In this document: one piece after another, positions 56,380 to 57,283 of the stretch
Layout of the letters: every line of letters begins with the position of its first letter
Position numbering within the stretch: the first letter of the stretch is position 1
Source: an uncultured Candidatus Binatia bacterium
GTDB taxonomy: Bacteria; Desulfobacterota; Binatia; UBA9968; JAJDTQ01
Reading direction: 5' to 3'
Assembly: GCA_965204505.1 (NCBI GenBank)
Contig: CBDBFB010000002.1
Coordinates: forward strand, 2,370,778 to 2,434,777
Length of the DNA: 64,000 nucleotides
Position numbers and translations under genes: made by a program
The notes under the pieces: model-generated
The model's database searches: none
The model's input: only the letters and a program-made list of their open reading frames with translations
What the model was told of the DNA's origin: nothing

Positions 56380-57283
56380 GTGCAGCGAGACTAGCTGCTG
56401 AACTCGCGGGCGAAAGTCCCGCCGGCGCAATTCTCAGTTTGGCGTCGTAGTCATATCCCGCAGGCAACAGGGCGACCTGCTGCCTGTAAAGCAGGGAAGT
56501 AAAAGCCCTTGTGGGCCGGGTGAGAGATTGTTCACTTCTGGTCCAGGTCAGTTGGAGGGCGAGCAAACCGGAGGGCCGTAGCGAAAGCGAACAGTCGTCC
56601 GAAGCGTCGAAAACGGCGTTCCCCGCATCGAAGCTGACTTGTGGGGGTAATTGGTGGATGCCAAGGGATTCATGACGTCCCGATGGCTAGAACCGATGCG
56701 GAAGGAACTGAGGAATGCACGCATCGGGTCCCCCGGCGTACAGACGGCGGCAATCCGGGAAAGTTCAGCGGTGAAAGTCCGGAAGGTGAGGAGGACAGAC
56801 AGGATGTTGTGACCCTTGAATGTCAAGGACCGCGTCCATAACCGGATAACGGGAAAGGACGCGGAGTCCTCCTGACTGGCGGATGAGGTCGATTAAGCGT
56901 TGACGGGCTGGACAACATAACCGGCCCTGAGCGAGGACCTCTGGGCCTAGGTGACCGTGTGGCGTATGGCTGGTCTGCCGGTGCACAGAAACCGGCCTCC
57001 ACGGCGATATGCGGCACGGTCGAAGGACGGCGTAAACGCGGGTGTCTGCACGGGCATGGCCGGGTCAGCCTTAACCGTGGCGGGTATCGCGGAAGACGCC
57101 GTACCGAACTCCTGAAGGGGTGCCTGGTGCTTGAAGCCGTACCCGGGAAAACCGGACGTACGGAATTTCAGGGGGGATGCTGGAAACGTGGTCTATGGTG
57201 GAACTGCGCACCCACCCGCGATCGAAAGAGCGGGAGCGGACAAGCCTCCACCTAAGGATGCGCGCGCCAGCGTCCTACCCGAC
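56380..57283 (+). mobile_element. ORF-less group II intron B (904 bp) nested in sense orientation in the RT ORF of intron A
   Basis: Starts GTGCAGCGAGAC. It carries domain V gaagccgtacccgggaaaaccggacgtacggaat (57135-57170) and ends ...cgtcctacccgAC. Excision joins gtcatg|gaagctggagagtgg, which encodes WLSAGVM-EAGEWRDDLRGTPQGSVVSP in frame. A second copy lies at 6250-7077 (minus). Confidence 0.55.

Follow-up and report, generated by a model that had tools for sequence, protein, structure and literature searches.

Group II introns nested within other group II introns (twintrons), as well as group II introns without an open reading frame (ORF), have been documented in bacteria and archaea (PMC4424553). 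In Thermosynechococcus elongatus, ORF-less TeI3 introns reside in the reverse transcriptase (RT) ORFs of TeI4 introns and in insertion sequence (IS) elements, and their mobilization in trans by "driver" intron-encoded proteins has been demonstrated experimentally (Mohr, Ghanem and Lambowitz, 2010, PMC2882425). As summarized in PMC4424553, ORF-less and RT-encoding introns of Methanosarcina acetivorans home repeatedly into other group II introns and form nested arrays (Dai and Zimmerly, 2003). Here we describe a locus of this kind in a stretch of 64,000 nucleotides (hereafter the window) from an uncultured Candidatus Binatia bacterium (assembly GCA_965204505.1, contig CBDBFB010000002.1, positions 2,370,778 to 2,434,777 of the forward strand), in which an ORF-less group II intron of 904 nt divides the RT gene of a second group II intron. 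The twintron is a clean, base-exact bacterial example of an already known arrangement. In our judgment the element at 56380-57283 is very probably a structurally intact, non-autonomous IIB-like group II intron that entered, by reverse splicing, the RT gene of the intron at 55279-58108 (an intron of an unrelated class) on the sense strand, and that would splice with the aid of a helper acting in trans.

An intron within the reverse transcriptase gene of another intron

The nested elements and the two parts of the interrupted gene are as follows.

55279-58108, plus strand: outer intron A (group II), spanning 2830 nt, or 1926 nt once the inner intron is subtracted, and lying antisense in a DUF7146/Toprim_3 gene
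55314-55535, plus strand: 5′ ribozyme motif of the outer (host) intron, RF02005 (group-II-D1D4-6), 184.1 bits, E = 7e-54
55633-56379, plus strand: exon 1 of the host RT ORF, 249 codons, last residues KWLSAGVM; RVT_1 profile positions 1-104
56380-57283, plus strand: inner group II intron without ORF (copy 1), 904 nt; RF02003 match, 165 of 167 family consensus pairs kept
57284-58051, plus strand: exon 2 of the host RT ORF, from EAGEW to the stop codon; RT motifs B-E and maturase X; RVT_1 positions 117-204 and GIIM
58034-58108, plus strand: domains V-VI of the host intron; RF00029 at 31.6 bits, under the gathering score, with the match ending at 58108

The 5′ exon reads ...GGCGTCATG with 56379 as its last base, the inner intron begins with GTGCAGCGAG at 56380 and runs to ...CCTACCCGAC at 57283, and the 3′ exon follows with GAAGCTGG from 57284, giving TGAGCGCCGGCGTCATG/GAAG as the target site of copy 1 (a slash marks a junction throughout). 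When the exons are joined, a 504-aa RT with the junction KWLSAGVM/EAGEWRDDLRGTPQG is obtained (reading KWLSAGVM/EAGEW). Plasmid pTT6-1 of Skermanella sp. TT6 encodes an uninterrupted LtrA, with which this RT can be aligned over its whole length (58% identity, 501 aa), ungapped where the exons meet. Both halves are free of stops and frameshifts, and in the unspliced state the upstream ORF (55633-56394) reaches a TAG at 56392-56394 after 253 codons. The coordinates of the insert and the in-frame rejoining of the exons had been proposed from the letters alone (the sequence-only reading) and prove exact, the two RVT_1 halves falling on either side of the insert; the proposed split between RT domains 4 and 5, on the other hand, has to be moved, as the insert lies after motif A (VVDCDIRAFFD), before motif B (GTPQGSVVSP) and 5′ of YADD, motifs which in the usual group II numbering we take to be RT-3, RT-4, and RT-5, respectively. 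The unoccupied site has been found in related introns at two loci of metagenome-assembled genomes (MAGs), one with 91% identity over 89 nt (L027) and the other reading ...GGCGTCATG/GAAG... (L101).

The outer intron starts with GUGCGCC at 55279, the point where similarity to the Skermanella and L101 introns begins. Deletion of 55279-58108 restores on the minus strand a DUF7146/Toprim_3 protein (...PQGGDFNDDLAALG...), and the Toprim_3 match grows from profile positions 2-84 (69.3 bits) to 2-94 of 95 (80.5 bits). Since removal of the outer intron restores Toprim_3 and the inner intron lies within the outer one, the order of nesting is a Toprim gene on the minus strand, intron A within it on the plus strand, and the ORF-less intron within intron A, also on the plus strand. 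Indeed, the outer intron so delimited contains the whole of the inner one in the same orientation, and excising the latter precisely recovers a colinear RT of 504 aa, so that the twintron recognized from the sequence alone stands. The class of intron A is compact, with only about 350 nt before the ORF, and its RT carries no endonuclease domain (Pfam). Its D5 (we abbreviate domains I to VI as D1 to D6), GAGCC...GGAUCUG at 58034-58070, has an A opposite the G of the AGC triad, as do all relatives examined (L001, L027, L079, L101), and judging from these sequences this looks like a class-wide non-canonical base of RF02005-class introns. The D5 of another intron of the window, which ends at 6189, has AAC...GAU instead (6115-6150).

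The inner intron can be divided into six domains, based on a consensus fold of 25 family members (RNAalifold).

56386-56781, plus strand: domain I; closing helices of the consensus pair columns 7-26 with 404-424, with compensatory changes
56782-56880 and 56885-56941, plus strand: domains II and III; consensus helices 18-24, with 23 pairs changed on both sides
about 56943-57129, plus strand: domain IV, without ORF or protein similarity, between D3 and D5; only two short conserved helices predicted
57130-57172, plus strand: domain V, from the single-sequence fold and the family consensus; AGC triad, the 2-nt AC bulge typical of D5, and an additional AA bulge that is invariant
57174-57276, plus strand: domain VI with a long internal extension, from the fold; six pairs of the basal helix show compensatory change

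Rfam model RF02003 (group-II-D1D4-4) matches 56404-56586 at 54.8 bits (gathering score 49), and it also matches all eight sampled relatives at 55-76 bits. The consensus fold comprises 164 pairs in 28 helices, with 97.0% of cells paired, a figure that falls to 81.4% when partners are shuffled and to 33-45% when they are slid by one to three columns; compensatory change is seen at 105 of the 164 pairs (17-35 when slid), and none of 500 shuffles matched the real consensus on any measure. Copy 1, whose full length is matched at 76-80% identity by copies from other genomes, breaks two of 167 consensus pairs, and the second copy of the window, described below, about four. D5 possesses the hairpin, the AGC triad, the AC bulge, and a GAAAA loop, and its helix varies across the family in a compensatory manner (GUAC/GUAC, GGAC/GUCC, GUGU/GCAC), the consensus showing covariation at three pairs, with canonical triad pairing requiring the AA bulge, which is invariant in the family and shared with RT-encoding relatives. 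The basal helix of D6 likewise varies from GGG/CCC to GAG/CUC, and the fold predicts a bulged branch-point A at 57277, position -7 from the 3′ end. The 3′ end ...GAC fits the group II rule AY, and the 5′ end GUGCAG has A at position 5 where the group II GUGYG has G, a feature common to more than 30 family members. The insert had been read as an ORF-less group II intron with its own domains V and VI, and the structural annotation that this reading called for extends it to a covarying fold that includes D1 to D4.

It had further been suggested that the 5′ ribozyme region of the host intron resembles part of the ORF-less element and that the two share a lineage. The best local alignment of host and copy 1 is a 36-nt patch (copy 1 370-403, host 9-44) scoring 33, where shuffles give 21.9 ± 3.0 with a maximum of 42, and when the host is added to the family alignment it keeps only 15 of 96 D1 pairs; this part of the sequence-only reading is not upheld. 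By their Rfam matches, inner and outer introns are both group II introns of different RNA classes, RF02003 and RF02005, respectively.

Site choice, the copy in IS66, and relatives in other genomes

Recognition of the insertion site by the inner intron involves three exon-binding sites (EBS), two of which have intron-binding sites (IBS) as their counterparts in the host RT ORF.

56364-56371, plus strand: IBS2 (GAGCGCCG), in the host RT ORF; 8 bp with EBS2 CGGCGUUC, one of them G.U
56373-56379, plus strand: IBS1 (CGUCAUG), the last 7 nt of the 5′ exon and the perfect complement of EBS1
56614-56621, plus strand: EBS2 (CGGCGUUC), at the alignment position complementary to flank -9 to -16
56671-56677, plus strand: EBS1 (CAUGACG), in a hairpin loop of D1; 7 bp with IBS1
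56741, plus strand: EBS3 (C), pairing with the first base of the 3′ exon, G57284
6250-7077, minus strand: ORF-less intron copy 2, 828 nt, a short-D6 variant with 5′ GCGCAG, antisense in the C-terminus of an IS66 transposase

Copy 2 has been aligned with copy 1 at 75% identity over 820 nt, with the last 31 nt aligning as well, and thus is the homologue in opposite orientation that had been reported from the sequence alone, with similarity far beyond short patches; no further match to copy 1 lies inside the 64-kb window. Its RF02003 score of 48.8 bits is slightly below the gathering score. Removal of copy 2 rejoins RIDEL/LPWAF, and Pfam DDE_Tnp_IS66_C then matches across the repaired junction (positions 17-39 of 39, E = 1.2e-6), confirming the IS66 context. 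Its D6 is shorter by 60 nt, which might be taken for degeneration, a reading we reject, the short D6 being a variant seen also in L011, L012, and L015. The 5′-end variants GCGCAG (U2C, as in copy 2) and ACGCAG recur in otherwise intact members (also in L027, L041, and L080). Copy 2 would be an older or diverged sibling that entered IS66, another mobile element, on the antisense strand.

The EBS of copy 2 differ from those of copy 1 and fit its own flanks: EBS2 GGGCGUUC and IBS2 GAACGCCC pair at all eight positions, EBS1 CUUGCC and IBS1 GGGAGG at five of six, and EBS3 U faces A at exon +1. The same is found across the family, where the EBS1 columns pair with flank -1 to -7 in 22-26 of 27 insertions with three to six pair types per position, and a segment about 55 nt upstream of EBS1 (EBS2) is complementary to exon -9 to -16 in 22 of about 28 independent insertions of differing sequence. 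EBS3 is a single base in the motif CGUA[N]AGACGGCGGCAA, whose column covaries with exon +1 (the neighboring column does so in an Acidobacteriota subgroup); in the RT-encoding introns of the window, the [N] of a motif GGGGUA[N]UGGCGGCGGCA pairs with their own +1 base. Exon recognition is therefore IIB-like rather than IIC-like. Since EBS sets that pair with their own, differing flanks at dozens of independent sites are the signature of RNA-guided insertion, the pairings show that both window copies arrived through RNA-guided reverse splicing. Moreover, the suggestion that the element is mobile in its own right holds, as the EBS of each copy fit its own flanks and other genomes hold more than 50 relatives at unrelated sites. 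That the arrangement is an artefact of assembly or a similarity due to chance is so improbable as to be negligible; nothing specific speaks for it apart from a window rich in repeats, whereas the junctions are base-exact and explained by 16 nt of RNA-DNA pairing, and two copies of only 75% identity are not collapsed or mis-joined repeats.

Relatives were sought by scanning one genome per species with the D5 pattern AAGCCG N5 GGGAAAACC N7 CGGAATT, the resulting counts being lower bounds with many loci ending at contig ends. At least 115 stretches with at least 126 D5 matches were found in at least eight phylum-level groups, including Alphaproteobacteria, Acidobacteriota, Planctomycetota, Actinomycetota, Nitrospirota, Verrucomicrobiota, delta- and gammaproteobacterial MAGs, and others. 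Among the matches listed, at least 86 are ORF-less, with the family 5′ end 600-850 nt (in a few up to 1200 nt) upstream of D5, and in at least about a dozen D5 is immediately preceded by an RT ORF, these being chiefly from Actinomycetota, with Vibrio hibernica in addition. At least 52 ORF-less copies (45 loci) of 750-910 nt could be delimited; 32 distinct full-length copies measure 787-911 nt, nearly all starting with GUGCAGYGA (a few with GCGCAG) and ending in a CYUACYCGAC-like sequence.

About half of the delimited copies lie inside other introns. An RF02005-like motif is present on the same strand within 2.5 kb of 17 of the 52 family copies (15 of the 45 loci), in 11 of them within 100 nt, and Rfam confirms the RF02005 neighbor in five of eight sampled loci, from Acidobacteriota and Alphaproteobacteria. 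The insertion points in this class vary, being D1 position 13, positions 45-50 or thereabouts, D5, and, in the window, the RT ORF. At L024 (about 1657-3080; also L084), a family copy sits within an RF02005-class domain V, between GAGCCGUAUG and CGUUAGUAGCGCCCGUACGGAUCUG, and the outer intron, with ~310 nt from its D1D4-6 motif to D5, may judging by this spacing be ORF-less too. RT-encoding introns of the RF02003 class also host family copies, in D1 after ...CAGCGAGCAGACAGGC and in D4a after ...GGGAAGGAGCCUCAGGUGCGG (L101 at about 1689-2800, L106, L115, L012), meaning that both kinds co-occur in Paracoccaceae MAGs. In self-nesting, one family copy has entered another directly behind D5, where the 5′ strand of D6 is rich in G (...GGAAUUUYAGGGGGG/GUGCAG..., L007 6120-7051, L012 2274-3170, L065, L070), and exact head-to-tail tandem copies (...CCUACCCGAC/GUGCAG...) are found at L075 1578-3286, L069 2460-4169, and L027 365-1390, the single-copy state of the tandem site being seen in L015.

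We have found no published description of this family, though our coverage of the literature is incomplete. Tentatively, and with somewhat less than even confidence, it may be proposed that the inner element represents an uncatalogued, phylum-spanning lineage of SINE-like IIB-type ORF-less introns with an AA-bulged D5, largely parasitizing other group II introns, RF02005 foremost, with a 16-nt EBS set retargeted within them. If this is true, bacterial ORF-less introns outside class IIC are not rare, and hyperparasitism of introns by an intron, with a recognition sequence that is long and programmable, would have a natural example. The family escapes RF00029, the model used in genome-wide censuses (PMC8919778), and thus has apparently been under-counted. 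It would also offer a tractable system for how non-autonomous retroelements find helpers and safe sites.

Candidate helpers and other introns of the window

Lying on the strand of intron A, the inner intron would be transcribed as part of it, and it would have to splice out before the 504-aa host RT could be made, translation otherwise stopping after 253 aa. With no protein of its own, the inner intron would depend on an RT/maturase provided in trans both to splice in vivo and to be copied into cDNA, and the window holds the following candidates for this role besides the host RT.

35879-37864, plus strand: RT-encoding RF02003-class intron, candidate helper; RF02003 80-85 bits, RT at 36336-37712 with RVT_1 and GIIM, no endonuclease domain
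39668-41653 and 30073-32054, plus strand: RT-encoding RF02003-class introns, the first identical to 35879-37864, the second diverged

Across 1986 nt the introns at 35879-37864 and 39668-41653 show 100% identity, implying that they have moved very recently. The diverged copy at 30073-32054 begins with GCGCGCC rather than GUGCGCC. All RF02003-class introns at 30-41 kb share with copy 1 the D1 motif, the EBS3 motif, and the extended D6, which is homologous (D5-D6 67% identical). The best PDB matches of both RTs, host and RF02003-class, are IIC RTs (7UIM, 6AR1) and do not settle the intron class. On account of the RNA class, and given that an element interrupting the RT it relies on would disable its own helper, the likeliest helper would be an RF02003-class RT-encoding intron at 30-41 kb, with the RF02005 host class as the alternative. 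Priming at replication forks is established for introns without endonuclease, and since both candidate RTs lack an endonuclease domain, the inner intron would probably be primed in this way.

The alternative, in which the family is a specialized parasite of RF02005 introns that captures their RT in cis from the shared transcript, we consider rather unlikely, albeit with a substantial share of the probability. It would account for the frequent RF02005-like motifs near family copies given above, for the insertions at differing positions of the host class, and for a 21-nt patch in which D4 of copy 1 matches the host D4a immediately before the RT start. However, RNA class, EBS3 motif, and extended D6 link the family to the RF02003-class introns, and maturases generally co-evolve with their own RNA class. 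Moreover, the insertion described here interrupts the very RT required, the D4 motif CGCGGAAG is common to all three intron kinds, the D4 comparison does not discriminate between the helper candidates, and nesting could merely mark neutral "safe" sites.

Several observations weigh against an intact, RNA-guided intron served by an RF02003-class helper. D4 of copy 1 scores 20 against the RF02003 introns, not significantly different from shuffles (18.4 ± 2.6), and the 21-nt patch shared with the host D4a scores 25 (17.3 ± 2.4). D5 is non-canonical in its extra AA bulge beside the catalytic triad, and RF00029, the Rfam D5 model, gives no match to the family D5 in the window or in eight other loci. 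EBS1 of copy 1 is unique among the 32 sampled copies, and copy 2 has one EBS1 mismatch besides U2C at its 5′ end. Finally, a scan of metagenomes with the junction pattern GGCRTCATGGYGCAGCGAG returned 109 hits with no true one, all in unrelated genes and none followed by the family 5′ motif. Exact-protein look-ups with three window proteins gave no recorded match leading to other twintron copies, and plasmid searches yielded no close relative of the window, their results being confined to RT matches of a distant kind in Skermanella and Agrobacterium and, in Bradyrhizobium plasmids, a D3 patch of 68 nt. The DNA is rich in GC, with Azospirillaceae giving the nearest hits.

That the junction has not been seen elsewhere would also be expected of a dead insertion, where the inner intron no longer splices, the host RT is knocked out, and both elements are decaying. 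In line with this, the window shows no second intact RT of the host class, no RT ORF follows the RF02005 motif at 1336-1555, and several introns of the window are broken. We nevertheless hold a dead insertion to be improbable, as the RT halves are without stops or frameshifts and align end to end with intact homologues, and copy 1 keeps 165 of 167 pairs along with perfect EBS/IBS pairing, as expected of a recent or maintained element; an intact intron that would be removed from the RT message thus remains our preferred interpretation.

Copies and fragments of group II introns number at least eight across the window. Among them is a separate twintron, in which a 654-nt ORF-less intron (4902-5555, plus strand; RF01999 D1D4-2 at 4979-5095, RF00029 D5 at 5480-5555 with 60 bits) lies within 4770-6189 and splits a 5′-truncated RT ORF at FADD/FVIALED; the outer D5-D6 is at 6115-6189, and the RT fragment shares its frame with the large serine recombinase ORF preceding it (3136-4899). 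The RF02005 motif at 1336-1555 (plus strand, 126 bits) has no RT ORF downstream on the same strand and is preceded by an RF00029 D5 at 551-627 (plus strand, 55 bits). Short tandem repeats, GCGCCCGCGG three times and GCGGCCCA about eight times (7120-7150, 7418-7485), are intergenic and lie upstream of an ORF at 7496-9544 with a cadherin-like domain.

Comparison with described systems

Hydrolytic endonucleolytic ribozymes (HYERs; Liu et al., 2024, as described in PMC12990946 and PMC11754743) are the other ORF-less group II introns known to be multi-copy in bacteria, and the family likewise has several copies in many genomes. One could accordingly imagine that the family spreads or acts as a protein-independent hydrolytic RNA with no RT partner, which we regard as very unlikely. 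In the same accounts HYERs belong to class IIC, measure about 0.4-0.64 kb, and read a target of 6-7 nt with no EBS2, whereas the family is larger (0.75-0.9 kb) and IIB-like, reads about 16 nt through EBS1, EBS2, and EBS3, and is further set apart by its extended D6 and the AA bulge of its D5. Its members, at 750-910 nt, show a covarying EBS2, and their flanks are coding or intron sequence with no common hairpin, where class IIC introns insert behind terminator-like hairpins. Furthermore, fixation of an RNA in DNA requires reverse transcription, and RT-encoding introns are found in the window and beside many relatives. A compact, protein-less IIB-type ribozyme reading ~16 nt may nonetheless interest developers of RNA-only DNA targeting, given the 6-7 nt read by IIC HYERs.

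The closest parallel is with T. elongatus, where an ORF-less intron in an RT ORF, siblings in other mobile elements (IS elements among them), good EBS/IBS pairing, and EBS that differ between families are found as they are here. Mobilization in trans was established by experiment there, while for this locus it would follow from the absence of a protein in the inner intron. The inner and outer introns of T. elongatus are close relatives derived from one ancestor, in contrast to the two introns described here, which by Rfam fall into different RNA classes. ORF-less copies in T. elongatus retain N- and C-terminal ORF remnants; here none is detectable, as copies 1 and 2 gave only E ≥ 0.45 in blastx against both window RTs, with E > 2 for copy 1, so that no RT remnants flank a D4 deletion, and D4 does not significantly resemble that of the RF02003 introns. 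The T. elongatus insertion lies between two start codons and leaves the RT producible, whereas the present one lies in mid-ORF, between motifs A and B. In addition, the T. elongatus family is confined to one genome and the present one extends over many phyla.

As for M. acetivorans, the nested arrays summarized in PMC4424553 resemble the related loci described above, with their self-nesting after D5, tandems, and insertions into D1 and D5 of other introns. In that summary the introns are archaeal and related to each other, with site-specific homing to a few conserved sites, while the present ones are bacterial, and copies with differing EBS have entered one host class at several positions. A bacterial twintron in need of sequential splicing, as likewise proposed here, is reported from the cyanobacterial genome of Trichodesmium (Pfreundt and Hess, 2015, PMC4649490). 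Taken together, what sets this locus and its family apart from the known cases is the apparent pairing of different RNA classes, the lack of a detectable ORF remnant, the mid-ORF site, the phylum-spanning distribution, and an invariant AA bulge in a D5 that goes undetected by RF00029.

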